Source of the DNA: Mycobacteriales bacterium
GTDB lineage: Bacteria > Actinomycetota > Actinomycetes > JAFAQI01
Direction of reading: 5' to 3'
DNA length: 64,000 bases
Assembly (NCBI GenBank): GCA_035547515.1
Contig: DASZUS010000008.1
Span: 28,257 to 92,256, forward strand
Shown: piece by piece, positions 40,012-64,000 of the stretch
Numbering within the stretch: position 1 is the first letter of the stretch
Layout of the letters: every line of letters begins with the position of its first letter
Made by a program: the position numbers and the translations under genes
Notes under the pieces: generated by a model
Databases searched by the model: none
Seen by the model: only the letters and a program-made list of their open reading frames with translations
Told to the model about the DNA's origin: nothing

Positions 40012-40041
40012 GAGCCCACGCTAACCGCGTACCCTCGAAGG

Positions 40042-41765: not shown

Positions 41766-41828
41766 GGAACCCCCTCGATCGCTGACGGCCGCAGCGCCGT
41801 CGACGGATGAACGATAGAGCGCCGAGCG

Positions 41829-45503: not shown

Positions 45504-45513
45504 GCGACGGGCC

Positions 45514-47160: not shown

Positions 47161-48617
47161 GAGTCGATTGCCAATGCTGCGAGCCTTCTCCGTCGTCGGC
47201 TTACCAGGACGTCAGCGGCGGCGACGCCGCCGAGGGTTGCGAGAGCGATCAGCCCGACCGCGAGGCCTGCGCCGCGGCTGCAGGACGGCCGGCCCGCCGC
47301 ACTCATCGTCGAGCAGCTCGAGCTGACGATCCGGGTGCCCGCGATCACCGGCGACTGGCCGCCCTGCGGCACCGTCGACGTCTGCGGCAGTGTCGGCGGC
47401 GCCCCGCCGCCGAGGCCAGGCCCGGTCGCTGGAGAGGCGCCGCCGGGGCTCGGGCTTGCCGGCGGCAGTGTCGGCGGCGTGCCGTTGCCGAACGGGTTGG
47501 CGTACGACGTGTCGCTGGTGGTGGCGGTGGCGCCGCCGAGCTCGGCGTCGACCGCGCCCACTCCGGTGAGCGCCGTCAGCAGCAGATTGAGAGAGGTGTA
47601 GACGCTGCCGACCTGGCAGATCGCGTTGGTGATCGCCGACATGACCGGGTCGGTGAGCGTGTGCAGCAGGTTCAGGATCGGCACGAACACCGCGGCGCCG
47701 ATCCGGGAGTTGTCGATCCCGATGGACAGGGGGCTGATCCCGTAGACGCCGCTGGACAGCGTCGGTCGCGGGAGGGTGATGTGGAGCCCCGTCGCGGCGA
47801 CCGCCTTGTTGACCGCCGCGAGGGTCGAGGCGAGCGCGTTCGGCAGCGTCGGCAGCTTGACGCCGGCGAGGGTCGCGGAGCCGATGCTGAACGAGCGCGA
47901 CATCGAGGGGTGCGTGCCGCTGCGTACCGAGATCTGCCAGTGCAGGCCGTCGAGTGCGATCTTGCCGCCGAGCAGGTCCAGCTTTGCGATGTCCGCGGTG
48001 GCGGTGGAGATCCGGGCCTGGCCGTTGATCAGTCGCGCGTTGGCGGAGCTGGACAGACCGGAGATGTCGAGCAGGCCGGGGATCTCGATGCGCTCGCCGT
48101 CGAAGCTGCTGGCTGCCGCTTCGTTCGGTTGCGGGGAGACTGAGACCGCCTCGCGCCCGGTTGCGACCTTGGCGGTCTTGGTGTCGGGTCCGGCAGCCGC
48201 CTTGTCGACGCTGGCGGCGCCGGTGTCGGACTCCGCGGTGAGCGCCTTGGGGAGATCTCCGGCAGATACCGGAGGCGGAAGTGAGCTGCACTGGACCGTC
48301 AGGGTCGAGCCGACCAGGCCGAGGTCGAGAGCCTGGCTGGAGGCCTGCGCCAGCGTGTCGCGGTAGTCGGCGATCGACTGCCCGACGGTCACCGTCGCGG
48401 CCAGCCCGGCGTCGCGCGGGGAGAGCATGAAGGCCTGCGAGGTCCCCGCTGCGGAGCCTGCCACGAACTCCGTCGCCGTGGCGGTGGGCATCGGCGACGG
48501 TTCGGGACTCGCCGATGTCGTGGTCGAGCTGATCGCGAAGGCCGGGAGCTGGGTCGCGACGACCGCGGTCGCGACGCCGGTATAGAGGAGCACCCGAAAG
48601 CTGCTCCTGGCGTCCAC
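47157..48617 (-). CDS. secreted surface protein with Pro-rich linker and C-terminal TM anchor (486 aa, hypothetical)
   Basis: Signal-like N-terminus (LLYTGVATAVVATQLPAFA), a Ser/Thr/Ala/Leu-rich body, then a Pro-rich linker (PPTLPPASPSPGGASPATGPG). The C-terminus is GLAVGLIALATLGGVAAADVLVSRRRRR. ATGA overlap with the SBP gene places it first in the transporter operon. Confidence 0.55.
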   Translation of the reverse strand: MDARSSFRVLLYTGVATAVVATQLPAFAISSTTTSASPEPSPMPTATATEFVAGSAAGTSQAFMLSPRDAGLAATVTVGQSIADYRDTLAQASSQALDLGLVGSTLTVQCSSLPPPVSAGDLPKALTAESDTGAASVDKAAAGPDTKTAKVATGREAVSVSPQPNEAAASSFDGERIEIPGLLDISGLSSSANARLINGQARISTATADIAKLDLLGGKIALDGLHWQISVRSGTHPSMSRSFSIGSATLAGVKLPTLPNALASTLAAVNKAVAATGLHITLPRPTLSSGVYGISPLSIGIDNSRIGAAVFVPILNLLHTLTDPVMSAITNAICQVGSVYTSLNLLLTALTGVGAVDAELGGATATTSDTSYANPFGNGTPPTLPPASPSPGGASPATGPGLGGGAPPTLPQTSTVPQGGQSPVIAGTRIVSSSCSTMSAAGRPSCSRGAGLAVGLIALATLGGVAAADVLVSRRRRRLAALAIDS

Positions 48618-48692
48618 GGACGGACCATAGGAGGGCCGGACACGCCGGGCAAGGGTGGTGCAAACCGGGCCGCCGGGCGTACGCTAACTACT

Positions 48693-51371
48693 GTGACCCC
48701 ACCAACACAACAAAGTAAGACTAGTTTTGTGGTGGTCGGCGGCGGTGCGGCAGGCACCCTCGTCGCGACGCGCCTGCTCGACGAGTCGGCGCGGCGCCAT
48801 CTCTCGATGACAGTCACGGTCGTCGAGCCCCGCGCGGCGCTCGGCCGCGGGATCGCGTACTCCGCGGCGGACCGCCGCCACGTCCTCAACGTGCCCGCGC
48901 TGAAGATGACCGCGTATCCGGAGGACGGCGAGCACTTCCTGCGGTGGCTCGCGCGTCACGGCCGCGAGGTCGCGGAGGCCGACTTCGTCCCGCGGGCGTG
49001 GTACGGCCAGTACCTCGACGACGTGCTCCGGGCCGCGGCGCGCCGCGCGAACCTTGCCGAGCTGCGCGTTGTGCGCGCCCGGGCGACAGGTCTCGAGCGG
49101 GTGGGCACGCGGGCTCGCGTCATGCTCGACACCGGCGAGGACCTGCCGCCGGCCGACGGTGTCGTGCTCGCGCTGGGGCACCTCGGCGTCGAGACCGGCT
49201 GGGCGCCGCCGGCCCTTCGCGAGTCGAAGCGCTTCATCGCCGACCCCTGGGCAGCCGGCGCCCTCGACGGCGTACCGGAGGACGCCGACGTGATGTTCGT
49301 CGGCTCGGGGCTGACGATGGTCGACGCGGCCCTCCAGCTCGACCGGCCGGGCCGGACGCTGCGGGTGGTCTCGCGCCACGGCCTGCTGCCGCGGCGGCAC
49401 GTGCGCGACCTGCTTCCCGCGATGGAGGCGCCGCAGTTCTCGTGCGAGGCGCCGACGCTGGCGGAGCTGCGCAGGGTGATGTCGGCGCACATCGACAAGG
49501 CGCAGCGGCGGTACGGCGACTGGCGTCCGGCGATCGACAGCATTCGCGCCCTGACCCCCAAGCTGTGGGCCGGCCTCGACCCGGCCGACCGTGCCGAGTT
49601 CGTGCGCACCGACGCTCGCGCGTGGGACGCGGTGCGGCATCGCATCCCGCCCGACAGCGCGGAGCTCATCCACCAGATGCGCGGGGCGGGCCGGCTCGTG
49701 CTCACTCCCGGCGAGGTGGCGGCGGTGGTCGAGAGCGACGCTGGCCTCGCCGTACGTCTCTCGGACGGCTCGTCGGCCATGGTCGGGGCAGTGGTCAACT
49801 GCACGGGACCCTGCGATCGGCCGGAGCGCAGCCGCGACCCGTTCGTCCAGTCGCTGCTGGCGGCGGACCTCGCGCGAAGCGGGCCGCTCGGGATCGGGTT
49901 CGACACGCGCCCGGACGGCCGCCTCATCGGGCGTGACGGCAGTGACGACTTGCCGCTGTTCACCCTCGCGGCGCTTCGCAAGGGCTCGCTGTGGGAGTCG
50001 ACGGCGATGCCCGAGATCCGGGTGCAGGCCGCCCACGTCGCGCGATGTCTCGTCGGGCCGGCCCGCCACGAGCCGGTGCGCCCGACCGACCAGTACGGGC
50101 TGGCCGTATCGACCACCGCCGAGGCGGCGGAGCTGTGGCGGCAGGCGCTGGACCGGATCCGCCGGGTGCAGGCGGGGGCGCCGGAGCTGATCGCGGCAGC
50201 CCTCGAGATCGACCCAGCCTTTGCCCTCGGGCACGCCGCTCTCGCGTTGCTGGCGCGCGAGTGCGAGGCCGACGTCGACGCGGCGGCGTCGCTGTCGTGT
50301 GCGATCGACGCGATGCGGCTGCGGGCGGACGCCCGGGAGATCAGCTTCATCCGCATGGTCGAGGCGCGGCTGGTCGAAGAGCCCGCCACCGCGGACGAGC
50401 AGCTGCTGCGGCACATCAAGCAGCATCCGATCGACTGCCTCGCGGTGAGCGCGGCGCTGCCGACGATCGCCTTCAGCGGGGTGGCGCAGCCGATCGAGCA
50501 GGCATGGGCGCTGGTCGACTCGCTCGCACCCGAGTACGGCGACGACTGGTGGTTTCGCAGTCTCGCGGCCTTCACCCGCCAGGAGCAGGAGCGCTTTGCC
50601 GAGGCCGAGGAGCTGGCCGAGCAGGCGCTCGCCTTCGAGCCGGCTGCCGGGCACGCCGTGCATGCCCGCGCACACATCACCTATGAGACCGGCGACCACC
50701 TCGCGGGTCTGGCCTGGCTGGATCGATGGATCGACGAGCACGGCGGGGACACCAACCACCGCGCGCACTTCGTGTGGCACGCGGCGTTGCACGAGATCGC
50801 GATGGGTGACTTCGACGCGGCGCTGCGGCGCTACCACGAGCAGCTCGCGCCGCCGCGGGTCACCGGGGCGCGGGCGCTGGTCGACTCGGCGTCGCTGTTG
50901 TGGCGGCTGCGGATGCTCGGCGTGTCGATCGGGTGTGCCGAGATGCTGCCGACCCTGGCAGCGGTGGACCAGTGCGTCTTCGACCGCCCGGCGACGACCT
51001 TCACCGCGCTTCATGCGGCCATCGGACTGGCCGGTGCAGGCGACCTCGCCGCTCTCGCCGCTCTGGAGTCCTACGCCGCCGAGCATCCCAACCGCTCGTT
51101 CGCGGTAGCCGTCGTACCGCTGTGCCGCGGGCTCGCGGCGGTGGCCGATAGCCGGCCGGCCGACGCGGTCGGCCCGCTCACCGCCCTGCGCACCATGGGG
51201 CTGCGCCGCTTCGGGGGGAGCGCGGCCCAGCAGGAGGTCGTGGAGGAGACGCTGCTGCACGCACTCGTCGCATCGGGCCGTCGGGCTGAGGCCGCGACCT
51301 TGCTGGACGAGCGGCACCAGCGACGGCGGTCCCCGGGCGACCAGCGCCGCCTGGAGGCTCTCCTCAGCTGA
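48693..51371 (+). CDS. FAD/NAD(P)-binding domain protein fused to a TPR (TTC38-like) domain
   Basis: 892 aa from a GTG start. The N-terminal Rossmann motif is FVVVGGGAAGTLVATRLL, with a second dinucleotide motif at MFVGSGLTMVDAAL. The C-terminal ~400 aa are helical repeats (HFVWHAALHEIAMGDFDAALRRY), resembling TTC38-type TPR proteins. The longer antisense ORF is an Arg-rich artefact. Confidence 0.6.
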   Translation: MTPPTQQSKTSFVVVGGGAAGTLVATRLLDESARRHLSMTVTVVEPRAALGRGIAYSAADRRHVLNVPALKMTAYPEDGEHFLRWLARHGREVAEADFVPRAWYGQYLDDVLRAAARRANLAELRVVRARATGLERVGTRARVMLDTGEDLPPADGVVLALGHLGVETGWAPPALRESKRFIADPWAAGALDGVPEDADVMFVGSGLTMVDAALQLDRPGRTLRVVSRHGLLPRRHVRDLLPAMEAPQFSCEAPTLAELRRVMSAHIDKAQRRYGDWRPAIDSIRALTPKLWAGLDPADRAEFVRTDARAWDAVRHRIPPDSAELIHQMRGAGRLVLTPGEVAAVVESDAGLAVRLSDGSSAMVGAVVNCTGPCDRPERSRDPFVQSLLAADLARSGPLGIGFDTRPDGRLIGRDGSDDLPLFTLAALRKGSLWESTAMPEIRVQAAHVARCLVGPARHEPVRPTDQYGLAVSTTAEAAELWRQALDRIRRVQAGAPELIAAALEIDPAFALGHAALALLARECEADVDAAASLSCAIDAMRLRADAREISFIRMVEARLVEEPATADEQLLRHIKQHPIDCLAVSAALPTIAFSGVAQPIEQAWALVDSLAPEYGDDWWFRSLAAFTRQEQERFAEAEELAEQALAFEPAAGHAVHARAHITYETGDHLAGLAWLDRWIDEHGGDTNHRAHFVWHAALHEIAMGDFDAALRRYHEQLAPPRVTGARALVDSASLLWRLRMLGVSIGCAEMLPTLAAVDQCVFDRPATTFTALHAAIGLAGAGDLAALAALESYAAEHPNRSFAVAVVPLCRGLAAVADSRPADAVGPLTALRTMGLRRFGGSAAQQEVVEETLLHALVASGRRAEAATLLDERHQRRRSPGDQRRLEALLS

Positions 51372-51447: not shown

Positions 51448-51828
51448 CTAGTCGTTGACGGTCGGAAGGCCTTCGGCGCGCCAGGCGCGGTAGCCGCCGA
51501 TCAGGTCCGTTGCACGCCGGATGCCCAGGTTGCGCAGGCTGTCGGCGGCGAGGCTCGAGGCGTAGCCCTCGTTGCAGCACAGCACCACCCACGCGTCGTA
51601 CGACGCGAACGGCAGTCGTGCCTCGGAGGCCGGGTCGAGCCGCCACTCGAGGACGTTGCGGTCAATCACCACCGCGCCGGGGATCTCGCCTTCGATGACC
51701 CGGTTCACCTCGGGGCGGATGTCGATGATGAGCGCGCCTTCTGCCTGCGCGGCGAATGCTTCCTTCGGGGTCAGCCGCGACAGCCGCGACCTGGCATTGG
51801 CCAGTGCCTGGCTGATCGTCATCGTCAT
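51448..51828 (-). CDS. single-domain rhodanese-like sulfurtransferase
   Basis: The ATG at 51828 gives 126 aa. The rhodanese pattern is LIIDIRPE...GEIPGAVVIDRN..EW...VVLCCNEGYASSLAA..L...G...DLIGGYRAW. ATGA overlap with the upstream cysteine dioxygenase gene. Confidence 0.75.
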   Translation of the reverse strand: MTMTISQALANARSRLSRLTPKEAFAAQAEGALIIDIRPEVNRVIEGEIPGAVVIDRNVLEWRLDPASEARLPFASYDAWVVLCCNEGYASSLAADSLRNLGIRRATDLIGGYRAWRAEGLPTVND

Positions 51829-52337
51829 GCCGGCACCGCGCTCGGTGCCCGCCGGCCGATGGCAGCCTCGCGGTCCTCTCGGGTCGAGACGGTGCGCACT
51901 CGCGCGAGCCCGCTCGGGTGCTGGGCGTAGAACGACATCTCCGACAGCGGTGGGGAGTAGGCATGCAGGCTCACCGCTGCCGCGGGTCCGGCGTTGTAGA
52001 CGTCGTGGACCGTCGTCGGGGAGATCGCCACGGACTTGCCCGCCGTGACAACCGTCGTACGGGTCTCCAGCGCCTCGGGCATTGCGCGGACCTCGGTCAG
52101 CGCGCCCTGGACGACGAGGAACGCGCCCGACGAACCGCCGTGGTCGTGCAGCTCGGTGCCTTGGCCGGTCAACCAGGTGAGCAACCAGATGTCCGCACAG
52201 TCGTTGCCTTGCAGCCGCCGCCACCAGCGGCCGGAGGCGTCGAATCGCGCCAGGCTGCGCCACTGCGAGGCGCGGTCGGCGAGCCGCTCGAGGACGGCTA
52301 CTAGCTGCGTTGCGTCGAGTGTCTGGAGGGAAGCCAT
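51825..52337 (-). CDS. cysteine dioxygenase type I family (cupin) protein
   Basis: The ATG at 52337 gives 170 aa (an alternative GTG is at 52358). The cupin metal motif is WLTGQGTELHDHGGSSGAFLVVQGALTE, with a later HDVYN...VSLHAYSPPL. Confidence 0.7.
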   Translation of the reverse strand: MASLQTLDATQLVAVLERLADRASQWRSLARFDASGRWWRRLQGNDCADIWLLTWLTGQGTELHDHGGSSGAFLVVQGALTEVRAMPEALETRTTVVTAGKSVAISPTTVHDVYNAGPAAAVSLHAYSPPLSEMSFYAQHPSGLARVRTVSTREDREAAIGRRAPSAVPA

Positions 52338-52355
52338 AGAGCAACTGTAGCAGAC

Positions 52356-52367
52356 CACTCAAGTAAC
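52356..52367. promoter_or_regulatory. conserved AT-rich motif CACTCAAGTAAC, copy 1, in the cdo leader
   Basis: It lies in the 34-bp gap between the stop of the PDO-rhodanese gene (52372) and the cdo ATG (52337). It matches 53831-53842 at 11 of 12 positions, with a 9-nt identical core CACTCAAGT. Confidence 0.4.
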
Positions 52368-53884: not shown

Positions 53885-56257
53885 ATGCGGTTCCGGTTGA
53901 GCAGTTCAAGACTTGTGGCGGTGGGTGCAGCGCTCGCCGTCGCGTCCGGAGGAGGGGTGGCAGCCGCGTCGACGGGAACGTCGGCCGCGAGCGGCTCGAG
54001 CTCCTTGCTTCCGACGATCACCCGCACCGTCGACACGATCAAAGCCGCGGGCAAAACGGTGGTCGGCAGCGTCAACTACACGGTCAACGAGCCGACCGAG
54101 TCGCGCGCGAGCGCGACCGACACCTACGGCAACCCGCTCGAGGGCCTCTCGCTCAAGGGCCTGCCGAGCCTGCCGGGCGTGGGGGAGGGCCTCCCGTTCG
54201 AGACCGGCAACAACCCGGGGCTGGACAACGAGCCGTCGAGTGAGAACACCGGCAAGTGCCCGCCGCCCGGCAACGGTCACGAGTACCTCATCGTGTGGGC
54301 CGGCAAGATGAACGCCGCCGACCTCACCGGTACCGACATCCTCGACCTGATCAACGGCGGTGCGGTCAACCCCGAGGGTCTGGCCTCCCAGATCCCGATC
54401 GAGTTCCTCGAGACCGGGTCGGACATGATGGCCACGATCGACGCCGAGCCGGGTTGCGCGACGTACGGCAAGGTCGTCAACGTCTCAGTCGTCAGCGGCC
54501 CGGATGGCGTGGAGAACGAGCCGCATCACATGCAGTACACGTGGTACCCCGGCCAGACGGTCTGGGCGGGCGGCCTGTTCACCTCGCGGCTGTTCACCTA
54601 CGACTTGTCCGACCTGCCGCAGGTCAAGCTGACCCGGATCGACGAGCCGTGGTCGACGCCCAGCGGCAGCATCTGGGACGCGTTCGCGACGCTCCCCAAC
54701 GGAGACGCGTACGGCACGCTCATGGGCGGTCCGCTCTACGCCTACGGCACCACGCCGGGCGCGGTCGTCGAGATCGCCGGCAACAACCACCCCGGCGCGC
54801 AGCCCGGCCAGATCCTCGGCGAGTGGCCGGCGTCCGGGTCGGAGGACCTGCTGAACTCGGCGAACACCAACGGCAGCGTGGGCGGCGCTCTCCTGTCGTC
54901 GGTCGGCTCGACGCTGGGGAGCCTGCCTGGTCTGGTGAGCAAGGGCAACGACGACGCGGGCATCAGCACGGCGAACGGTCACATCAAGTGCCCGGACTTC
55001 GGCAGCTGCGCCAACCCGCACGGCATCCAGATCCGAGCCGACCTCCACACGATGGTGACCTCGGACTACGCCGAGCCCGCCCAGATCATCGAGGACCCGG
55101 TCAAGCCGACCAACCCGTACTACTTCCGTCGTACGGTGCGCATCTGGAGCTTCGACGACAAGGGCTGCTCCGGCAACCCGACGCCGGGCGCCACGATCAA
55201 CAACCCGAAGATCTGCGCCATCGACGTGATGCCGCTCGGGCCGCGTGACGACTCGAACCCGGCCCACGGCGAGAACCTCGGGATCATGGAGAACGGCGCG
55301 ACCTGGGACTACCCGCTGCCTGACGGCAACGTGCCCAAGGGCTGGTTCTCCGAGTCGATGTGCGGTGGCGCGGTCTTCTACACGCCGGACATCACCGACA
55401 CCAAGGACCACCCGTGGCACGAGGTCTTCGACTCGACCGCGGCGGTGGCCGCACTGAAGTCCAATGGCGCAGGCAGGGTGCCCGGCGGTGGCGACCTGAA
55501 GAACGAACCGGCCGGCTGCGACGGCGCGGCGTGGGACGTCGTGAGCCCTGACAACCGGTTCCTCGGTCACGCGGTCAGCGGGCGCTACATCCTGCAGGAC
55601 GACTACGACGACGCCGGTACGCCGAAGATGGTCTACACCCTGAGCATCACCAAGCTGCTCGAGGCCGGCGACCACTACAAGTGCAACCTCGCGAACAACA
55701 TCCGCGCGCTCGCCGACCCGACGCTGGGCGGCAAGGACTGCCCGACGGTGGCCGGTGTGGTCCCGATCAACGACCCGACCTCGGGTGGCCCGCACTGGGC
55801 GGAGTTCGACAACTTCCGCCTGGCCGCGGTCAAGATCAAGGACCCGAAGACCGGCAAGACGGTGATCGACTACCACGCCCCGACCCGGATCGCGGAGGCG
55901 AACTACTTCGTCGCCCGGACCGGCGTCGACGGCAACCACACCGTCTGCATGATCAACATGAACCCGACCACGGGCTCGCTCTCGCTCGACACCAGCTTCA
56001 TCGACGAGACCGAAGGCACGCCCTGCGTCCAGTTCAACCGACGGGACTGGCCGGACCCGAACATCAAGGGGTTCTACAAGCCGCACTCGATGCTGTTCGT
56101 CGAGAACGACCCGCCGGCAACCGGTCTGACCCCGTACGGGCACAACTACGGCCCGAACTGCGAGTTCGGCAAGGTCGTGGACGGTCAGTGCCGCGGCTAC
56201 TGGGGCGAGCCGATCGACATGGGCGCTGATACCGCCGGCTTGAAGTACGAAGAGTGA
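53885..56257 (+). CDS. large secreted SBP56 (selenium-binding protein / methanethiol oxidase)-like protein, 790 aa
   Basis: Signal peptide [21 protein letters not shown]. The motif order is collinear with SELENBP1 as recalled from memory. [17 protein letters not shown] matches CGPGY..[29 protein letters not shown]...ENEPHHMQY matches [20 protein letters not shown]...[31 protein letters not shown] matches [45 protein letters not shown] matches [23 protein letters not shown]. The family assignment is not verified by any search. Confidence 0.55.
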   Translation: [790 protein letters not shown]

Positions 56258-59013
56258 GCGGCCGCCGCTGGCCGCGCCGGGGCAGGAACCTGCTCCGGCG
56301 CGGCGGCGGCGTCGCGCTGCTGACCGTCCTCATCGGACTCGTGACGGCAGCTCCCGCCGCCGCCCACCCGTACCTGCTCAGCAGCAACCCGGCGAACGGC
56401 GCCATCCTCGCGTCCGCCCCCGCCACGATCGACATCAGCTACACCGAGGGCCTCGACCGCCCGTACTGCTCGGTGGTGCTGGTCGCCCCAGACGGCACGC
56501 ACGTCGACACGCACCAGGTTGCCGCGTCCGCTCCGACCGAGCTGGCAGTGGCGCCGGACGCGTCCCTGTCCGAGCAGGGCACCTACGCCGTCAACTGGAC
56601 CGCGGTCGGCGACGACGGCCACACGGTCATCGGCAGCTTCGGCTTCAGCGTCGGCCACCCGAGCGCCAACGCGGCAGTCCAATCCGGCGGCACCGCCGTG
56701 TCGGGAACCGGGTCGAGCTCCGGCGGGGCTCGCCGGGTGCTCGGCGCGGTCCTGCCGTTCGCCGTCATCGTCCTCGCGGGACTGGTCCTGCTGTCGCGGA
56801 CCTTGGCCGCCGCCGGGGCCCGCGCGACTCGGCTGATCCGGGTGGCGTTCGCTGCCTCCGGCGCGCTCGAGCTTGCGCTGGCCGGGATCGCGATCTCCGA
56901 CCACGGGCTGTCGGCGTTCGGCTCGTCGGCGACCGGTCGCCGGCTGATCGCCGAGATCGCGTTGACAGCGGCGGCGGGCCTTGCCGGGCTCGCCCGGACC
57001 TCTCGCCGGCGGACCTGGCTCGGCGGGCTCGCCGCACTGGCACTGCTCGTCGTCCTTGCCGACTCCGGCCACGCGGCATCGCAACCGTCGTCGCGACGCG
57101 ACCTCGTCCTCGCCGTGTACTCCCTGCACCTGCTCGCGGTCAGCATCTGGATCGCTGCGATCGCCGCCGTCCTGCTCCGGCTTCGCACGAGGACAGATGA
57201 CGACCTTGCACCCGACCTGCATCGCTCGCTGCGCACCCTTGTCGCCGTGTCGCTTGTTGCGGTGCTCGCGACAGGCGTTGCGACGACGGACTGGGGCCTG
57301 CGCACCCTGAGCGATCTTCCGCACACCACCTATGGCCGGCTGGCGCTGACGCTTGCCGGCCTCTTCGTGGTCATGGTGTGCCTGGGCATTGCGGCGTCGG
57401 CGTCGCGTCGGATGATCGTGGTGGAAGCCGTCGTCGCGGCTGGCGCGCTCGTGGTGGGCGGCGTGATCAGCCAGTCGTCCCTGCCGCTCGACGAGCCCTA
57501 CGCGTCGCAGACATTTGCCGCCTCGACCGGTGTTGCGATGTCCGTGGCACCGGTCGGTGACGACGGCCTGGACATCGCCACGCTGGCGCCGGGCATCGTG
57601 GGCCGCAACACCCTGGTCCTCGAGGTCGGGCACGCCGACGAGGAGGACTTCCTGAGCCCGCAGTCAAGCGTGAGGGCGGTCACCGCGACCGTGTCCTGCG
57701 GCGGCTGCGGAGCGCCGGACCAGCACCTGACGTTGCAGCCGACCGGGGCGGGAGCGGAGTGGACGGCAGACGTCACGTTGCCGCGAGCCGCTTCGTGGCT
57801 GGTCACGGCGGCGGTACGGCGCGCTGGTGCCGCGGCGGAGGTCTCGCGGTTCTCCGAGCGCGTCACGCCCGCGGACCTTCCCGACCAGGTCGTCATCGGC
57901 GTCCCTGCGGCGTTGTCCGGACCTAGCGGATCGACCTGCCGTGACCAGCTGCTCGGGCTCCAGGTCGCGCTGCAGGATCTCAACGCGCAGGCAGCCGACC
58001 ACGGCGACCTCATGCGCGTCGTCGCAGTGGACCTGCACGACGGCGTCACGCAAGCGATGGCACGGCTGCACTCCCTCGGTGCGCGGCTGATCGCCATGCC
58101 GTGCGGCACCGCGGACCAGGTCGACCGAGCCACCTCCCTGGCCCGCGCCGCCGGGCTGCCGGTGGTGGCGGGGGAGGGCTCGGTGACCGACCGGCAGGCC
58201 GGGGTCTGGTCGACCCAGCCGTCGTGGCAGGCCGAAGGCGCCGCGATCGCCAACCAGGCGCTGCGCCAGGACGCTAAGAGCGTCGTCGCCGTTGCGGGGA
58301 CGACCGCGGTGGACCAGGCCGAGCTCGCCGGGTTGCGGCAAGGTCTCGCCGGGCATGCGGTGGCGCTGCGCGTGACGGGCTTTCCGGCGAGGCCGCGGAG
58401 CTTCGTCGGCGGTCTCTACCGTGCCGACACCGACGTGGTCGTGCTGCTCGGCGACCGCACGGAGGCCGATCCCACAGTGCACTCGTTCTCCGCCGTGAAC
58501 GCGGACACCGGATGGGCGCCGACGCACGGCATCCTTGCGTCGGCCCAGCTGATGAGCACGGACTTCATCAACGGCGCCGGCAACATCACCCGGGTCGGGG
58601 GGATCGAGTTCGCGAGCGACATCAACCCGTTCGACCCGATCGCCCAGTACTACGCCAGCCGGCTGCGCGCGCTCGCCCCCGGCGTACGCCCGACCTTCGA
58701 TGGCGTGCACGGTTACGACGCCGGTCTGCTGGTGGCGGAGGCGTTGCGTGACGGCGGCGGCCGGCCGTCGCCGTCGTCGCTCGCGAAGCTGCTCGGCTCG
58801 CACTTCACCGACTTCACGGTCGGCAGCTACCAACTCGACTGGCAGCCCGACGGCGGTACGTCGACGTCGCTGGCGTTCTTCCGCTCCACGTACGTCAACC
58901 CGATGGCGATGCCGTCGTTCGCGCCGGGCGGCGCCGCGGCCCTTGCCCACGAAGGAACATTTCTCAATGCCGGCGGCTTCGAACAAGTCGCCCCGTTTAG
59001 GAGGTTGTCGTGA
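56254..59013 (+). CDS. CopC - CopD - (YtkA-like?) - type 1 periplasmic-binding-protein fusion, 919 aa
   Basis: GTGA overlap with the upstream gene. A signal/TM segment is followed by a CopC domain that begins with the predicted mature N-terminal His. The CopC sequence is AAAHPYLLSSNPANGAIL...TIDISYTE...GTYAVNWTAVGDDGHTVIGSFGFSV. About 8 TM helices follow, consistent with CopD. Next is a roughly 120-aa beta-rich region containing SCGGCG. The C-terminal ~330 aa resemble LivJ-type PBP1 (VVIGVPAALSGPSG...AMPCGTAD...VVAVAGTTAVDQAE...FDGVHGYDAGLLVAEAL). Confidence 0.65.
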   Translation: MSGRRWPRRGRNLLRRGGGVALLTVLIGLVTAAPAAAHPYLLSSNPANGAILASAPATIDISYTEGLDRPYCSVVLVAPDGTHVDTHQVAASAPTELAVAPDASLSEQGTYAVNWTAVGDDGHTVIGSFGFSVGHPSANAAVQSGGTAVSGTGSSSGGARRVLGAVLPFAVIVLAGLVLLSRTLAAAGARATRLIRVAFAASGALELALAGIAISDHGLSAFGSSATGRRLIAEIALTAAAGLAGLARTSRRRTWLGGLAALALLVVLADSGHAASQPSSRRDLVLAVYSLHLLAVSIWIAAIAAVLLRLRTRTDDDLAPDLHRSLRTLVAVSLVAVLATGVATTDWGLRTLSDLPHTTYGRLALTLAGLFVVMVCLGIAASASRRMIVVEAVVAAGALVVGGVISQSSLPLDEPYASQTFAASTGVAMSVAPVGDDGLDIATLAPGIVGRNTLVLEVGHADEEDFLSPQSSVRAVTATVSCGGCGAPDQHLTLQPTGAGAEWTADVTLPRAASWLVTAAVRRAGAAAEVSRFSERVTPADLPDQVVIGVPAALSGPSGSTCRDQLLGLQVALQDLNAQAADHGDLMRVVAVDLHDGVTQAMARLHSLGARLIAMPCGTADQVDRATSLARAAGLPVVAGEGSVTDRQAGVWSTQPSWQAEGAAIANQALRQDAKSVVAVAGTTAVDQAELAGLRQGLAGHAVALRVTGFPARPRSFVGGLYRADTDVVVLLGDRTEADPTVHSFSAVNADTGWAPTHGILASAQLMSTDFINGAGNITRVGGIEFASDINPFDPIAQYYASRLRALAPGVRPTFDGVHGYDAGLLVAEALRDGGGRPSPSSLAKLLGSHFTDFTVGSYQLDWQPDGGTSTSLAFFRSTYVNPMAMPSFAPGGAAALAHEGTFLNAGGFEQVAPFRRLS

Positions 59014-59651
59014 AGCTCGCTCAGCTCGGCGGTGTCGCCGCGGGAGCGACAGCGGTTCTGCTGGTCTCCGGGTGCGGCGGCGGTTCGACCCCAAGCCCGT
59101 CGTCGCACCCGGTCACGGCGAGGCCCGCCGCGGCAGTGGCGCCGGTGACGACCGGCTGCACCGGGGCGATGCTGCCGAAGGGCTTCACGGTCGACGCCGC
59201 GCACACCGGCAAGCTCACGGCACACAACTACAGCGCGACGGCCGATGTGCAGGCGGCGCTGGAGTACGACCAGATGACCGACGGCGGCCGCGACGTATGG
59301 CTGAAGCGAGCGAAGTCGGGACGGATCACTCAGGTGGCCAGCTGCATCGCGATGCCGTTCCCGTCGGCGCACATCGCCAACCGGTTCTTCATGTCCTACC
59401 GGCAGCTGCGCACGGACGCGGGATCCATCGTGCATCGCATCGCGCTGCCGAAGCCGGTCGCCGGTCTGGCGGGCGTCACGGCGTACCTCGAGACGCAGCA
59501 GTCGTTCCGCGGGTACCACATCGCCTCGACGAACGTGATCGAGGCGGCGGGCCGGGACGGCTCACGGCTCGACATCGTGTCGGTAGCGGGCTCCTCGCCG
59601 TCAGCCGCGCTCGCGCAACGGCTGCTGGCCGCGATGGCGGGTGCCGCATGA
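59010..59651 (+). CDS. lipoprotein, hypothetical (213 aa)
   Basis: Lipobox AVLLVSGCGG. GTGA overlap with the upstream gene. No domain recognised. Confidence 0.55.
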   Translation: MKLAQLGGVAAGATAVLLVSGCGGGSTPSPSSHPVTARPAAAVAPVTTGCTGAMLPKGFTVDAAHTGKLTAHNYSATADVQAALEYDQMTDGGRDVWLKRAKSGRITQVASCIAMPFPSAHIANRFFMSYRQLRTDAGSIVHRIALPKPVAGLAGVTAYLETQQSFRGYHIASTNVIEAAGRDGSRLDIVSVAGSSPSAALAQRLLAAMAGAA

Positions 59652-60298
59652 GCGCGCGTCGCAGCGCTGTGGCCCTCGCCCTGGCAGCGCTCGGCTTCGC
59701 CGTGGCGGGCTGCAGCAGTGGCTCCTCGCCGTCCGCGAGCCCCTCCAGTCCGGCTGTCGCGTCGAGCCCGTCGACCGTGCAGACGGTCCCGCCCGGACCC
59801 GTCGTACCGAGCTCGCCTTCGCTGTCGCTGGCCGACATCGCCGATCCTGGGCTCGCATCCCACATCGGCGACGGCAAGCTGACCGTCGCCCAGGTCAGGC
59901 AGCTCATGCAGTTCTTCGAGAACAAGGTCAGCGCCGCGTATGCCCACGGCGACGCGGACGCCCTCGACCACTACCTCGCGGGGCCGATGCTGTCGGGCAA
60001 CCGGGCAACGATCAACCTGCTCAACAGCCAGAACAAGCTCAACGTCTACCGGATCAGGGTTGGCAAGGTGACGATCGAGACGAACGAGAAGACCAGCGTG
60101 ATCTTCGACATGACCGGCGACATGGTTCTCGACTACTTCCTCGACTCGAAGACGCACAAGGTCCTCGAGCACGGATTGCCCGGGCCGAGCCAGGTGCAGT
60201 TCGCGGTGTTCTTCAACGAGAACCCGAAGAACCACACGTGGTACTGGACCGGTGAGAAGTCCGAGACCGCTAGCGACTCGTCGGGGGCAGGCCAGTGA
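59648..60298 (+). CDS. lipoprotein, hypothetical, possibly NTF2-like fold (216 aa)
   Basis: Lipobox LGFAVAGCSS, then a Ser/Pro linker, then a ~140-aa domain (VAQVRQLMQFFENKVSAAYAHGDADALDHYL...VIFDM.GDMVLDYF). ATGA overlap with the upstream gene. Confidence 0.55.
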   Translation: MSARRSAVALALAALGFAVAGCSSGSSPSASPSSPAVASSPSTVQTVPPGPVVPSSPSLSLADIADPGLASHIGDGKLTVAQVRQLMQFFENKVSAAYAHGDADALDHYLAGPMLSGNRATINLLNSQNKLNVYRIRVGKVTIETNEKTSVIFDMTGDMVLDYFLDSKTHKVLEHGLPGPSQVQFAVFFNENPKNHTWYWTGEKSETASDSSGAGQ

Positions 60299-61296
60299 GG
60301 CGGGCGAGGCTCGCGGCCGCTCTCGCCGGTCTGGTGGCGGCGGCGGTCGCGGCGCCGGCCGCCGCCGCGTCCGCTGGGGCGCGCTCTGCCGGGCACCCCG
60401 GGATCCTGCGGTTGTCCGGCGTGCTGCGGCTGGCGAGCGGGAGCTGCGCCGGCGGAACGCCCAGCGGGAGCTATCTGTCCGTCACGTTCGGAACGCGCGC
60501 GATCGACAACCCGGCGTCGGACTGCGAAGGCGGCGCGGTGACGCTGCTCTCGCCAGGACGTGAGGGCCTATCGACGACGTCGTTCTCCCCGGCTTCGGAG
60601 GACGGATTCGACGGTCGCGGCAATGCCGTGGCCCAGTCGATCACCCGCCCGGTCGCCTTCGGCAAGCACCTGCTCGGCCTCGTCAGCTCGGCCCAGGACT
60701 TGCAGGACGCGCCAACCGGGCCTGGCTTGTTCTCGCTGCCGCACATCTACGTGACAGGGGACAAGGTCCTGGCCGACGTCCGGTCGGTGCAGGTGCTCTA
60801 CGGCGGGCAGGCCGACACCACCTGTGCGTCCGGAGCCGGAGCCGGGTGCTGGCTGATCGGCGCGGAGCGAGCCACGGGGACCTACGACGCGGCGACCCGC
60901 CACATCACGCTGTCGTGGTTTTCCGGGCAGTCGTTCGTGCCGCAGTCGGCGGGGACCGCAGTGCATCTGTCCGGCACCTTCGTGGGAGCCGAGCCGAAGC
61001 CCGTGAGCACGCACGGCGTGGTCGAGCTCGGCACGTCGAGCTTCAGCGCCGCTTCGCCGCCACCCGCAGTCGTCGCCGCGATCCGGCACAGCTCGCCACC
61101 TCCCGCTCGGGCGGCGAAGCGCCGCGCGGTGGCAGCTTCCGGCCCGGCCTCCGAGCGGTCGGCGCTCACCGGCGGGGAGGACTCGCCGCTGTGGCGCGTG
61201 CTCGGTTCGCCATTGGCGCTCGCCGTCGCGACGTTGCTGATCGGGGTCGACGGGCTGCTGCTGGCCGGCGCAGTGGGGCGAAGGCGGACGCGGTGA
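60295..61296 (+). CDS. secreted protein of uncharacterised paralog family (member 1) with C-terminal TM anchor (333 aa)
   Basis: Signal peptide (LAGLVAAAVAAPAAAAS). The ~200-aa core is shared with the 61293-62006 and 62613-63326 products: GTPSGSYLSV, FDGRGN, ATGTYDAATRHITLSWFSG, HLSGTF. An Ala/Pro-rich linker follows, then LALAVATLLIGVDGLLLAGAVGRRRTR. GTGA overlap with the upstream gene. Confidence 0.6.
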   Translation: MRRARLAAALAGLVAAAVAAPAAAASAGARSAGHPGILRLSGVLRLASGSCAGGTPSGSYLSVTFGTRAIDNPASDCEGGAVTLLSPGREGLSTTSFSPASEDGFDGRGNAVAQSITRPVAFGKHLLGLVSSAQDLQDAPTGPGLFSLPHIYVTGDKVLADVRSVQVLYGGQADTTCASGAGAGCWLIGAERATGTYDAATRHITLSWFSGQSFVPQSAGTAVHLSGTFVGAEPKPVSTHGVVELGTSSFSAASPPPAVVAAIRHSSPPPARAAKRRAVAASGPASERSALTGGEDSPLWRVLGSPLALAVATLLIGVDGLLLAGAVGRRRTR

Positions 61297-62006
61297 TCGC
61301 CCACCGTGGCCGCCGGGCACTGGCCGCCCTGACGGCGGGCGCTGCGCTCGTCCTCGCGGCGGGCTGCAGCGGCACGCACCAGACCACGCCGGACGCGACG
61401 CACCTCGACGGGCTGTTCCGCATCGCTCCCGGCGCCTGCCCGGCGGCCTCCGGCCTGCCTACCGGCAGCTACCTCGTCGTGCTCTCGGCCGCGTCGGGCG
61501 GCACCGTCGGCAACCCGCACGGCGGGTGCAAGAACCCGGCGTACACCCTGCTCGACCCTGGCACCGACGGCGGGCTGGTGACCGGAGAGTTCCAGCAGGT
61601 CTCGGGACCGACGTTCGACCGCCACGGCAACTCGCGCGACGGGCGGATCATCGCGCCGGTGCGCTTCGGCAAGCTCGACGTCGGCTTCGGCACGAGCTCG
61701 CGGGACGAGCAGGACGCGCCTGCCGGAGCGCCCGCCTTCCCGGTCCCGTCCGCAATCGTCCGGGGCAGCGCGCTGTCGGTGGACCTGCGCTCGTTGGTGG
61801 TGAGCTACGCGGGCGACGCGGACACGAGCTGCAAGACGACGTACGGCGTCGGCTGCTGGGAGCTCGGCTCGGAGAACGCCACTGGCACCTACGACGCAGC
61901 GACCGGCCACTACAGCATCCAGTGGTTCTCCGGTGCGTCGTTCACGCCGAAGGGCGACTCGATCGAGGTCCATCTCGAAGGCACGTTCGTCCCGTCCTCC
62001 TCGTGA
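61293..62006 (+). CDS. lipoprotein of the same uncharacterised paralog family (member 2, 237 aa)
   Basis: Lipobox ALVLAAGCSG. Core motifs: GLPTGSYLVV, LDPGTDGGLVTGEFQ, FDRHGNS, ATGTYDAATGHYSIQWFSG, HLEGTFVPSS at the end. GTGA overlap with the upstream gene. Confidence 0.6.
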   Translation: MIAHRGRRALAALTAGAALVLAAGCSGTHQTTPDATHLDGLFRIAPGACPAASGLPTGSYLVVLSAASGGTVGNPHGGCKNPAYTLLDPGTDGGLVTGEFQQVSGPTFDRHGNSRDGRIIAPVRFGKLDVGFGTSSRDEQDAPAGAPAFPVPSAIVRGSALSVDLRSLVVSYAGDADTSCKTTYGVGCWELGSENATGTYDAATGHYSIQWFSGASFTPKGDSIEVHLEGTFVPSSS

Positions 62007-62599
62007 GCCGGCGAGCGTCGCTGGCCATCGGCACCGCGATCCTCGTGGTGCTCGGCTGCGGAGCGGGCGTTGCGGCTGGCCGGGGTGGTGGGGACGCGTC
62101 GGCCAGCGCGGACCTGATCGCGCCGTTGTCGACGGCCGACCGGTCGGCGCTTGCCGCTGATCACCAGCTGGTCGAGAGCCTGCCGGGCGCCCTTGCCGAG
62201 GTGCCCCGCGCCGCGGCGGATGCGGCACGCGTCGACGCCGCGACGGCGAGGTCGGAGCTCGCCGGCAATGCCGCGCTGCACGACCTTGCTGAGGCCGCCG
62301 AAGGGCGCTCGGCGGCCGTGTCGCTGCTGGTCTCGGACTACCGGGAGCTGCTCGCCGGCCGCCCGTTGCACGACGTCGCCGCGATGCCGCAGGCGTTGGC
62401 ATCGCTGCAGGCAATTGAGGGCGACATCGTGCCGGCGGTGCGGGTGGTCGCCTTCACACACGGCCGGCGGCTGACGGCCACAGCGGCGTACGAGGCGGTC
62501 GCGGGCGACCACCGGGCGCCGGAGCTTGCCCGGCTGCTGGCCGACTGGTCGCAGGCCTACGGCGTGCTTGTGCTGATGGAGCAGAAGGCGCTCGGCTGA
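62003..62599 (+). CDS. lipoprotein, Ala-rich helical, hypothetical (198 aa)
   Basis: Lipobox-like AILVVLGCGA. GTGA overlap with the upstream gene. It is the last gene of the + strand operon. Confidence 0.5.
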   Translation: MSRRASLAIGTAILVVLGCGAGVAAGRGGGDASASADLIAPLSTADRSALAADHQLVESLPGALAEVPRAAADAARVDAATARSELAGNAALHDLAEAAEGRSAAVSLLVSDYRELLAGRPLHDVAAMPQALASLQAIEGDIVPAVRVVAFTHGRRLTATAAYEAVAGDHRAPELARLLADWSQAYGVLVLMEQKALG

Positions 62600-62612: not shown

Positions 62613-63326
62613 CTAGCTCGACGGGGTGAAGTGCCCCTGCAGGTGCCAGTAGCCGGAGAACCCGTTGAACGGCCCGCCGACGATCGAGCTGGTCCAGGTG
62701 AGGACGAAGGCGCCCGTCGCCGCGTTGTAGGTGCCGGTCACGGGCGAGGTGATGCCGGGAGAGGTGCCCCCCGGCTTCGGCGAGCCCTGGTTGAAGTACT
62801 GGTTGTTCCAGGACGCCGACCACGCCTCGAGCTGGCCGGAGAGCTTGCCGTCGTTGTCGAAGATCTGCGGCGCGGGAACCTTGATGTGGCTCTGGGGGTC
62901 GACCTGCTCGGTCTGGATCCCGAACTCGATGGCGGTGAACGTCCCCGGCTTGGTGATCCGGTCGGCGAGGGAGTTGCCGTGGGCGTCGAACGCCTTCGCC
63001 GGCGGCGGCTGGAAGGTGCCGGTGACCAGCCCGCCGTCGGTGCCGGGCAGCTCGGGGGAGTAGGACTTGTCGGTGCAGACCGAGTCCGGGTTCTGGAAGT
63101 ACGGGCCGTTGGCGAGGCTGCCGTTGGCGTCGATCATCCGGAAGTAGCTGCCGGTCGGGGTCCCGCTGCCCTTGCAGGAGCCCGGCGTCAGGTGGAATGT
63201 GCCGACGAGTGCTTTCGCGCCCTGCGGGGCCGTGGTGCCGCCTCCTGACGAGCCGCCTCCGCACGCGGCGCCGGCGACCGCGAGCGACGCGGCCGTGAGG
63301 GCGAGACGAGCGGTACGGCGGTTCAT
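62613..63326 (-). CDS. lipoprotein of the same uncharacterised paralog family (member 3, 237 aa)
   Basis: The ATG at 63326 gives the lipobox SLAVAGAACGG. Core motifs: GTPTGSYFRM, LPGTDGGLVTGTFQ, FDAHGNS, VTGTYNAATGAFVLTWTSS, HLQGHFTPSS at the end. It is convergent with the operon, 13 bp from its end. Confidence 0.6.
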   Translation of the reverse strand: MNRRTARLALTAASLAVAGAACGGGSSGGGTTAPQGAKALVGTFHLTPGSCKGSGTPTGSYFRMIDANGSLANGPYFQNPDSVCTDKSYSPELPGTDGGLVTGTFQPPPAKAFDAHGNSLADRITKPGTFTAIEFGIQTEQVDPQSHIKVPAPQIFDNDGKLSGQLEAWSASWNNQYFNQGSPKPGGTSPGITSPVTGTYNAATGAFVLTWTSSIVGGPFNGFSGYWHLQGHFTPSS

Positions 63327-63334
63327 GGCACTCC

Positions 63335-64000
63335 TCATGCGGCGACGGGATCGGTGGCGACCGAGGCTTCGGCCGGGGTGTCGGGACGGCGTTGCGGCGG
63401 TGCGCCGGCTGCGATCGCGGCGAAGAAGACCAACGCGCCCGGTACGACGAAGAACCAGGGGAACAGCATGAACGAGGGCAGCGACGAGATCGCCTGGAAG
63501 CGCGGCAGGCTGTCGCTCATCGCGCCGATCATCGGTGTCATGTCGTTGAGGATGTGCACCCAGTCGGCGTCGAGGGCGGTGATTGACGGGTAGTCGGCCG
63601 CGAGAGCGGCCTGGCTGACCCCGGAGGAGCGCAACGCCGGGACGATGTCGTTGCGGATCGCACCTTGTCCGACCGCCATCGTCGAGAAGTACTGCTGGAT
63701 CTGCCCGATCTTCTGAGGCGTCTCGATCTGCTTGAAGGTGCTCATCATGTCGGCGCCCTTCGGCGCCCGGTCGAACATCTGCGTCGCAACCGGGGCGAGG
63801 ATCAGCGCGATCCCGATCACGGCCAGGCCGATCCGGGTGGGCTGGGGCGGCAGCGCCCCGAGCAGGCCCGCGATGGCGAGCGCTGCCATGAGAACGCCGG
63901 GGATGACGAAGAACCACGGGAACAGCCGGAAGCTGGGCAGTGCGGCCATCGCCTGGTAGTTGCCGAGGTTGTCCTGCACCTTGTCGAGCAGGTCGGTCAT
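63335..64000 (-). CDS. membrane protein with internally duplicated TM module (at least 221 aa; start coincides with the window edge)
   Basis: An ATG sits exactly at 63998-64000, so the gene may extend beyond the window. Two copies of a module are present: YQAMAALPSFRLFPWFFVIPGVLMAALAIAG and FQAISSLPSFMLFPWFFVVPGALVFFAAIAAG. A ~110-aa soluble region separates them. The stop lies 8 bp upstream of paralog 3's start. Confidence 0.5.
   Translation of the reverse strand: MTDLLDKVQDNLGNYQAMAALPSFRLFPWFFVIPGVLMAALAIAGLLGALPPQPTRIGLAVIGIALILAPVATQMFDRAPKGADMMSTFKQIETPQKIGQIQQYFSTMAVGQGAIRNDIVPALRSSGVSQAALAADYPSITALDADWVHILNDMTPMIGAMSDSLPRFQAISSLPSFMLFPWFFVVPGALVFFAAIAAGAPPQRRPDTPAEASVATDPVAA

Follow-up and report, generated by a model that had tools for sequence, protein, structure and literature searches.

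A recurrent CopC-CopD-Ig-PBP fusion protein encoded next to a secreted SBP56-like protein in a Mycobacteriales bacterium, with a possible role in copper supply

Genes at the locus

A stretch of 64,000 nucleotides from the Mycobacteriales bacterium assembly GCA_035547515.1 (contig DASZUS010000008.1, positions 28,257 to 92,256, forward strand; the whole stretch is called the window below) was analysed around an open reading frame (ORF) at 56254..59013 (+), which starts with GTG and encodes a protein of 919 amino acids (aa). From its N-terminus, this protein (hereafter the fusion) consists of a signal peptide, a CopC domain, a CopD-type membrane domain with eight transmembrane helices, an immunoglobulin (Ig)-like domain, a type 1 periplasmic binding protein (PBP) fold and a conserved tail. 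Its start codon shares 4 nt (GTGA) with the stop codon of the preceding gene, which encodes a secreted SBP56-like protein. The two genes and the parts of the fusion are listed below, together with the basis of each assignment.

53885..56257 (+): secreted 790-aa SBP56-like (methanethiol-oxidase-like) beta-propeller; match of the fold predicted with AlphaFold2 (AF2), HH motif, relatives
56254..59013 (+): whole fusion ORF; start GTG overlapping the TGA before it (GTGA), stop overlapping the GTG of the next gene
56254..56364 (+): signal peptide, aa 1-37, predicted cleavage AAA/H; hydrophobic core at residues 17-39
56365..56658 (+): CopC domain, aa 38-135, probably C0-1 type; Pfam, family profile, His brace
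56725..57483 (+): CopD-type membrane domain, aa 158-410, eight transmembrane helices; NCBIfam, Pfam matches of homologs, AF2
57529..57873 (+): Ig-like beta-sandwich, aa 426-540, YtkA/FixH-like; AF2 strands 428-538, domain hidden Markov model (HMM)
57880..58893 (+): divergent type 1 PBP fold, aa 543-880, LivJ/HAAT cluster; fold search, domain profile
58894..59010 (+): C-terminal tail, aa 881-919, ending AHEGTFLNAGGFEQVAPFRRLS; predicted disordered, conserved

Integrity of the fusion gene

An earlier reading of this DNA (the original prediction) had described the ORF as a fusion of CopC, CopD, Ig-like and LivJ-type modules, and this anatomy was borne out by Pfam, by profiles of the homologs and by an AF2 model in which every module was folded. 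The frame was open throughout, with a G+C content of 0.88 at third codon positions (GC3). Colinear full-length homologs with 28-76% identity were found on many independent contigs (19 were aligned), and the GTDB genomes contained 14 complete fusions spread over three phyla; the hosts belong to Mycobacteriales, Frankiaceae, Acidimicrobiia, Solirubrobacterales, Chloroflexota and Ca. Dormiibacterota. Because colinear full-length homologs recur in independent assemblies, the four-module fusion is real and recurrent, and is neither an assembly artefact nor a frameshift artefact of the kind that the original prediction had named as a way for it to fail. The probability that such an error joined two or three genes is negligible; nothing was found in its favour, the sole hint being that the window sequence alone fails in Pfam for CopD and PBP. 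A public protein identical to the fusion (100%), from a Mycobacteriales metagenome-assembled genome (MAG), is labelled 'copper resistance protein CopC', and some of the homologs already bear the three COG domain labels from public annotation pipelines. In a scan for promoters and terminators, no promoter was predicted, and terminator-like sites did not exceed the expectation from shuffled sequence.

Domains of the fusion protein

The CopC domain was recognised by Pfam PF04234 over residues 38-133 (E=5e-17, 63 bits against a cut-off of 23.3), and the family profile matched CopC (6nfq, 3e-16) and the CopC domain of YcnJ (9c14, 7e-15) in the PDB. The sequence around the predicted cleavage site (A35-x-A37/H38) and the DxH motif (D121-G-H123) were unchanged in 19/19 homologs, and no Met was counted in residues 38-135. 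Subclass C0-1 of CopC is defined by an N-terminal His brace, a DxH motif and the lack of a Cu(I) site (PMC12362106). As H38, D121 and H123 do not vary and Met is absent, the CopC domain of the fusion is probably of subclass C0-1, with a putative Cu(II) His brace formed by H38 and D121-x-H123. The original prediction had pointed to the His that directly follows the cleavage site as a Cu(II)-type arrangement, and the invariance of A35, A37 and H38 in the 19 homologs agrees with it, the cleavage itself being predicted.

The CopD domain of the window sequence scored below the cut-off both with Pfam PF05425 (E=0.038, 14.8 bits, cut-off 32.1) and with NCBIfam NF033808 (E=2e-12, 47 bits, equivalog cut-off 195); PF05425 matched 13/19 fusion homologs at E<=0.01. 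In the AF2 model the region forms eight long helices, and H273, H292 and W299 are invariant among the 19 homologs. The charges of the loops fit the positive-inside rule, with six Lys and Arg residues inside and one outside. Eight helices and positive-inside loops together place the CopC and C-terminal domains, in the predicted topology, both on the outside of the cell. The fusion has six cysteines in all, and four of them (C482, C485, C562 and C617) are invariant and extracytoplasmic.

Two of these cysteines form the C482-x(1,2)-C485 pair of the Ig-like domain, which was invariant in 19/19 sequences. Pfam YtkA matched neither the fusion nor its 19 homologs. The HMM of the Ig-like domain matched the C-terminal domain that follows CopD in ordinary CopC/CopD proteins (E from 1e-6 to 4e-5), including P0027, in which this domain is typed by Pfam as YtkA/FixH (E=1e-6), and P0039, P0049 and P0059 (about 3e-6 to 5e-6). 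The Ig-like region is thus likely to be the known YtkA/FixH-type domain of YcnJ-type proteins, and, because its HMM finds the post-CopD domain of CopC/CopD proteins, modules 1-3 appear to make up a YcnJ-type protein to which nothing but a PBP fold and a tail of 39 residues has been added. The comparison with YcnJ drawn in the original prediction was therefore apt, as the matched proteins are YcnJ-like.

The same prediction had expected a PBP1 match for the C-terminal region, which was obtained with profiles of the homologs and with the fold search of the AF2 model but not with the window sequence alone: Pfam gave no match to its PBP domain even at E<=10, and its C-terminal 360-380 aa, searched as a single sequence against the PDB, reached a best E of 0.14. 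Peripla_BP_6 (PF13458) matched 6/19 fusion homologs (best 1e-15), and a profile of the PBP domain alone matched 3lop (2e-11) and E. coli LivJ (1z15, 3e-9) in the PDB. When the PBP domain of the AF2 model (predicted local distance difference test, pLDDT, 80-94) was searched against the PDB by Foldseek, 3hut was retrieved with E=2.5e-13 and a target template-modelling score (TM-score) of 0.75, together with hundreds of other LivJ-type matches, several of them with a target TM-score of about 0.75; AmiC was also retrieved. The C-terminal domain is therefore modelled as a two-lobe type 1 PBP fold, of LivJ type but divergent.

The most conserved residues of the PBP domain gather at the inter-lobe pocket, at which C562 and P616-C617-G618 are invariant. 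In the profile alignment, P616-C617-G618 corresponds to LivJ L77-C78-S79 and C562 stands next to the Tyr18 position; the Ser79 position is an invariant Gly (G618) in the fusion family, the Ala100-Thr102 segment is a variable stretch, and Tyr202 and Glu226 lie beyond the confidently aligned part. Ser79 and Ala100-Thr102 are presumably the residues that contact the amino-acid backbone in LivJ, and, since an invariant Gly stands in place of the former and the latter segment varies, the pocket does not look like that of an amino-acid receptor.

A search of 1.84 billion representative proteins with the PBP domain and tail gave 54 matches, mostly at the C-terminus of proteins of ~900-1100 aa; canonical LivJ-type proteins were reached only at E>=5e-5, and the matches form a small separate clade. 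The clade thus appears, by sequence, to occur almost only in the fusion context and to stand sharply apart from canonical binding proteins. The original prediction had called the fusion with a PBP-like domain unusual, and at this scale it is indeed rare; no description of a CopC/CopD-PBP fusion was found in the papers searched.

The tail (residues 880-919) had pLDDT below 50. G901 and G907 are invariant in it, as is H899 save for Tyr in Solirubrobacterales, and a tail HMM found the tail in 12 fusion loci and in the locus L011 described below. The final codons of the fusion (58995-59013, F-R-R-L-S, TTT AGG AGG TTG TCG TGA) hold an AGGAGG Shine-Dalgarno sequence and the overlapping GTG of the next gene, and part of the conservation of the C-terminal 'FRRL' may be a constraint of translational coupling instead of protein function.

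The upstream SBP56-like protein

SBP56-family proteins are copper-dependent methanethiol/thiol oxidases. MtoX is a periplasmic copper enzyme whose operon also encodes a SCO1/SenC copper chaperone (PMC5739008), and the HH motif is essential to the activity of methanethiol oxidases (MTOs), the copper content having fallen only in the HxxH, Asp189 and Glu252 mutants (PMC10362175).

The protein encoded upstream of the fusion has a Sec-type N-terminus without a twin-Arg motif. Pfam gave no match to the window protein, and NCBIfam MtoX matched it partially and far below the cut-off (E=9e-9 over 87 residues); PF05694 matched 9/20 of its relatives (best 1.8e-6). The family is large and mostly annotated as 'hypothetical', some distant members being named selenium-binding family proteins. 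For the AF2 model (predicted TM-score 0.75), the top PDB match was the SBP56 protein 2ece (E=3e-14, target TM-score 0.65), and the next-best propeller followed at 7e-8, about six orders of magnitude behind. This fold search was needed for the link to SBP56 because the family profile, compared with the PDB by sequence, reached 2ece only at E=0.049. The HH motif (H214/H215) was invariant in 20 sequences of the family and aligns to the HH of 2ece. On the modelled fold and this motif, the upstream protein is probably a highly divergent, distant relative of SBP56 and the methanethiol oxidases. The SBP56-like genes found upstream of the fusion in other loci are 54-92% identical to it.

Pairing of the SBP56-like gene with a membrane partner

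A scan of GTDB species genomes gave 315 relatives of the SBP56-like gene; the loci of 80 were retrieved, and 74 of these had sequence downstream. Partners were tallied using the domain HMMs from the fusion family and a further HMM built on the product of the next gene after the SBP56-like one in cultured actinomycetes. A homologous partner was present downstream of the SBP56-like gene in 71/74 loci, and the loci were distributed as follows.

14/74 loci: complete four-module fusion
5/74 loci: fusion cut by the contig end
1/74 loci: Ig-PBP-tail on a single transmembrane anchor (L011)
51/74 loci: partner B, a protein of ~600 aa
3/74 loci: no partner

The pair of SBP56-like gene and fusion was kept even where the identity of the fusion was down to 33%. 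Partner B (~580-650 aa) is encoded directly after the SBP56-like genes in Pseudonocardia, Kutzneria, Saccharopolyspora, Lentzea and Carbonactinospora. Pfam gave no match in the two members of partner B that were inspected, and BLASTP of the fusion found no similarity to the genes after the SBP56-like genes of Carbonactinospora and Sporichthya; the homology emerged with profile methods, hhalign of partner B with the fusion giving 99.5% probability and E=4e-23 over residues 148-925, from the CopD-like transmembrane region through the tail. Partner B has no CopC, the His residues of CopD are not conserved in it, and the segment of the PBP N-lobe equivalent to ~575-640 is deleted. It has a pair of cysteines ('PEC' and 'SCP') similar to the pair in the fusion, with 70-86% conservation.

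Taken together, the constant companion of the SBP56-like enzyme appears to be a membrane-tethered Ig-PBP-like unit, with CopD usual and with CopC and intact copper ligands confined to the four-module clade. Because the Ig-PBP-tail persists without CopC and CopD in L011, and without CopC and the CopD His residues in partner B, the PBP-like module would be tied to the SBP56-like enzyme and not to the gating of copper import.

Three further observations concern the pair in single genomes. One Ca. Dormiibacterota MAG (SMAG_U5500) carries three SBP56-like copies, of which one is followed by a fusion (L017), one has no partner within 8 kb (L018) and one lies at a contig edge (L026), which suggests an expansion of paralogs with the partner in common. 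In the locus of the most divergent fusion homolog (P0023 in L001, 28% identity), the N-terminus of the ORF (5398-5530) resembles the C-terminus of the SBP56-like protein, and an SBP56-like gene also lies convergently downstream of P0023 (9206-10042, -); the arrangement looks like the fossil of a rearranged gene pair. Pseudonocardia sulfidoxydans NBRC 16205 carries an SBP56-like gene and a partner-B gene (L063). This species was isolated for degrading methylated sulfur compounds and might therefore serve as a cultured model for thiol-oxidase activity.

Neighbouring genes

The genes nearest to the pair in the window are given below.

51825..52358 (-): cysteine dioxygenase (CDO) type I, Pfam CDO_I E=4e-22; also in L006, L007 and L047
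52372..53790 (-): metallo-beta-lactamase (MBL)-fold, persulfide-dioxygenase-like, plus rhodanese protein; divergent; Pfam Lactamase_B and Rhodanese
59010..59651 (+): lipoprotein LP1, 213 aa, lipobox LVSGC; kept downstream of the fusion in three phyla
59648..60298 (+): lipoprotein LP2, 216 aa, lipobox VAGC; kept downstream in three phyla
60295-61296 (g4), 61293-62006 (g5) and 62003-62599 (g6), all (+): small overlapping genes for secreted proteins or lipoproteins; actinobacterial fusion loci only

LP1 orthologs directly follow the fusion in L002, L007-L011, L015-L017, L019 and L048, and LP2 orthologs were found in 10 fusion loci, those of Chloroflexota and Dormiibacterota among them. LP1 (conserved residues C50, C112, D62 and H65) and LP2 had no match in Pfam or NCBIfam, and the conserved residues inspected in the two proteins formed no recognisable copper motif. 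Neither database matched g4, g5 or g6. The proteins g4 and g5 are paralogs (45% identity, E=4e-51), and g5 also resembles the C-terminus of a 434-aa protein encoded at 62613-63917 (-) with E=5e-26; these three form a paralogous family with a domain of ~200 aa and the motif 'GTYDAATGH..W.SG', without a Pfam or NCBIfam match, and the family adjoins the fusion only in actinobacterial loci.

On the other side of the pair, the MBL-rhodanese protein had weak NCBIfam matches to GloB and Blh, and its gene was present in 10 loci (L006-L010, L048, L023, L024, L027 and L047). A YeeE-like Sulf_transp gene was present in 30 partner-B loci, immediately after partner B in L004, and none was found near the four-module fusions in the retrieved loci. 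Judged from their domain matches, genes of sulfur metabolism (MBL-rhodanese, CDO and the YeeE-like transporter) recur around the pair of SBP56-like gene and partner.

Farther upstream, 48285-51371 (+) encodes a protein of 1,028 aa in which an FAD/NAD(P)-binding domain (NAD_binding_9, E=3e-39) is accompanied by a long, uncharacterised C-terminal region, and this gene lies upstream of the SBP56-like/partner pair in 8 loci, some partner-B loci included. At 41829-45812 (-), one gene encodes a polypeptide of 1,327 aa with two BPD_transp_2 permease domains and two ATP-binding cassette (ABC) ATPase domains, that is, a complete LivH-LivM-LivG-LivF-type transporter. The 565-aa protein beside it (45514-47211, -) had no Pfam match; its similarity to a canonical solute-binding protein (E=2e-5) makes it a distant Peripla_BP_6 relative. 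Upstream of the transporter lie a PAS-PAS-GAF-SpoIIE (PP2C phosphatase) sensor (37927-40020, -) and an AIM24-family protein (41013-41828, -), for which no link to the fusion was seen.

Comparison with known systems

The first three modules of the fusion stand in the same order as in Bacillus subtilis YcnJ: a signal peptide leading into a probable C0-1 CopC His brace (H38 and DxH), an eight-helix CopD with conserved His residues, and, past the last transmembrane helix, an extracytoplasmic beta-sandwich that appears homologous to the domain at the C-terminus of YcnJ-like proteins. In YcnJ itself, the YtkA domain at this end aids the metallation of an external cuproenzyme (CuA assembly), and CtaG-CopD fusions exist as well (PMC13344008). 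Unlike YcnJ, the fusion carries an additional LivJ-fold domain of ~340 aa and a conserved 39-aa tail, its Ig domain has an invariant C-x(1,2)-C, its operon partners are an SBP56-like enzyme and two lipoproteins instead of YcnK and YcnI, and it occurs in uncultured soil Actinomycetota, Chloroflexota and Dormiibacterota.

In the mtoX-SCO1/senC-mauG operons of Hyphomicrobium sp. VS and Ruegeria pomeroyi, an exported SBP56-family enzyme is likewise combined with a membrane-anchored copper-handling protein that is presumed to be a maturation factor, and the HH metal motif is common to both enzymes. The chaperones, however, are unrelated (a Sco thioredoxin fold there, CopC-CopD-Ig-PBP here), no MauG gene is present at the fusion locus, and the enzymes of the present family, at 600-860 residues, contain large insertions and can scarcely be related to SBP56 by sequence. 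No report linking SBP56 to CopC/CopD was found in the papers searched.

With LivJ/LivK (Peripla_BP_6, HAAT), the PBP domain of the fusion shares the 'LSGP' beta1 loop and the Cys at the LivJ C78 position; in contrast to them, it is covalently tethered to a membrane protein, the partner Cys has moved to the beta1-alpha1 loop, and no ABC genes belong to the conserved operon. Other CopD fusions also join CopD to an extracytoplasmic module for a particular cuproenzyme or redox partner, such as CtaG-CopD of Corynebacterium glutamicum and CopC-CopD-cytochrome c (P0048 has cytochrome c domains), whereas the fused module here is a PBP fold, and no report of a CopD-PBP protein was found in the papers searched.

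Function of the fusion

The best-supported reading, to which we give an even chance, is that the fusion, by analogy with the mtoX-SCO1 operons, is a dedicated copper-supply and assembly partner of the secreted SBP56-like enzyme, a putative thiol oxidase. Cu(II) would be captured by CopC and passed to the outward-facing His site of CopD, from which copper would go on, directly or after reduction or import, to the tethered unit of the CxxC-bearing Ig domain and the PBP-like domain. The newly exported SBP56-like enzyme would be docked at the membrane by this Ig-PBP unit and there be metallated or matured. Such a role might be likened to that of the SCO1/SenC chaperone of the proteobacterial mtoX operons, combined with that of the YtkA domain of YcnJ in CuA assembly.

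Several points weigh against a copper-supply role. Current models of YcnJ have CopD importing copper into the cytoplasm, which by itself would not load an external enzyme. The kinship with SBP56 is distant, the window protein fails in Pfam, and the copper dependence of the SBP56-like partner is assumed. C562 and C617 may simply form a structural disulfide that has been relocated, LivJ having C53-C78. Finally, partner B, which makes up a far larger clade than the four-module fusions, and L011 appear from their sequences to be without functional copper modules, so that copper delivery cannot be the universal role of the Ig-PBP unit, which must have a role beyond copper.

The chief rival to the copper-partner reading, which we regard as unlikely, takes up this last point. 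It holds that the PBP-like domain, in which two cysteines lie at the pocket, binds a thiol substrate of the enzyme or takes its sulfide or sulfane-sulfur product as a persulfide and relays it to a YeeE-type transporter or to a cytoplasmic persulfide dioxygenase, CopC and CopD merely supplying copper. It agrees with the constant presence of the Ig-PBP unit, and not of CopC/CopD, beside the SBP56-like gene, with the invariance of the pocket-flanking cysteines (the similar pair of partner B being conserved to a lesser degree), with the Sulf_transp and MBL-rhodanese genes in the loci counted above, and with the release of sulfane sulfur, not H2S, by some MTOs (PMC10936201). The four-module fusions themselves are without a nearby Sulf_transp gene, and the pocket cysteines could form a plain disulfide. 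We know of no persulfide carrier with a PBP fold.

Ligand-gated copper transfer or a tethered small-molecule receptor was what the original prediction had suggested. A PBP domain that responds to a free small molecule (an amino acid, for instance) by switching on or off the CopD-mediated uptake of copper for general use by the cell would suit the genuine LivJ-type two-lobe fold with its high pLDDT, the gathering of the most conserved residues in the inter-lobe pocket, and the frequent use of PBP folds as sensors, for example in AmiC. Against this, the contacts to an alpha-amino acid are gone (Ser79 is a Gly, and 100-102 are variable), the PBP domain survives without functional copper modules, and the strict coupling to one secreted enzyme is not expected of a general importer; given the changed pocket, the pairing with the SBP56-like gene and the persistence of Ig-PBP without copper modules, the suggestion was not supported, and we consider a gated importer improbable.

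It is very improbable that the PBP domain feeds the fused LivHMGF-like HAAT/Liv ABC importer encoded 8 kb upstream: although that transporter lies in the window, and Liv-type permease genes similarly precede the pair by ~7 kb in L016, L017 and L019, such transporters have binding proteins of their own as neighbours (Peripla_BP_6 in L016 and L017, and the distant relative at 45514-47211 in the window), the conserved operon is without ABC genes, and HAAT systems are so abundant that a proximity of 7-8 kb is weak evidence, so this role as a tethered binding protein was set aside.

A broader proposal is made tentatively and with some doubt: the Ig-PBP-tail might represent a class of assembly or hand-off modules that has so far escaped recognition, tethered to the membrane, based on a PBP fold and specific to the large, unannotated clade of secreted SBP56-like enzymes represented by the 315 GTDB relatives. 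Enzyme and module together would form a widespread two-component extracytoplasmic system for thiol/sulfur oxidation in soil Actinomycetota, Chloroflexota and Dormiibacterota, copper would enter by CopC/CopD in the four-module form, and the pocket Cys pair would bind Cu(I) or sulfane sulfur and not an organic nutrient.

What is new here is the addition of a PBP-fold module to a YcnJ-type copper protein that is probably dedicated to an SBP56-like enzyme, an architecture that is rare. For copper biology, it extends the theme of CopD fused to modules for one client enzyme (YtkA, CtaG). The SBP56 methanethiol oxidases are copper enzymes relevant to the sulfur cycle and, in humans, to halitosis and cancer biology. 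Their acquisition of copper has so far only been inferred, from the SCO1 neighbours in Proteobacteria, and the fusion locus points to a different, dedicated copper route in monoderm soil bacteria. At the same time, a large, virtually unannotated family of secreted SBP56-like proteins that come with a conserved membrane partner is revealed, through which the metallation of an exported propeller enzyme outside the cell becomes testable, as does the re-purposing of a LivJ-type fold from nutrient binding to protein maturation or to the hand-off of metal or sulfur.

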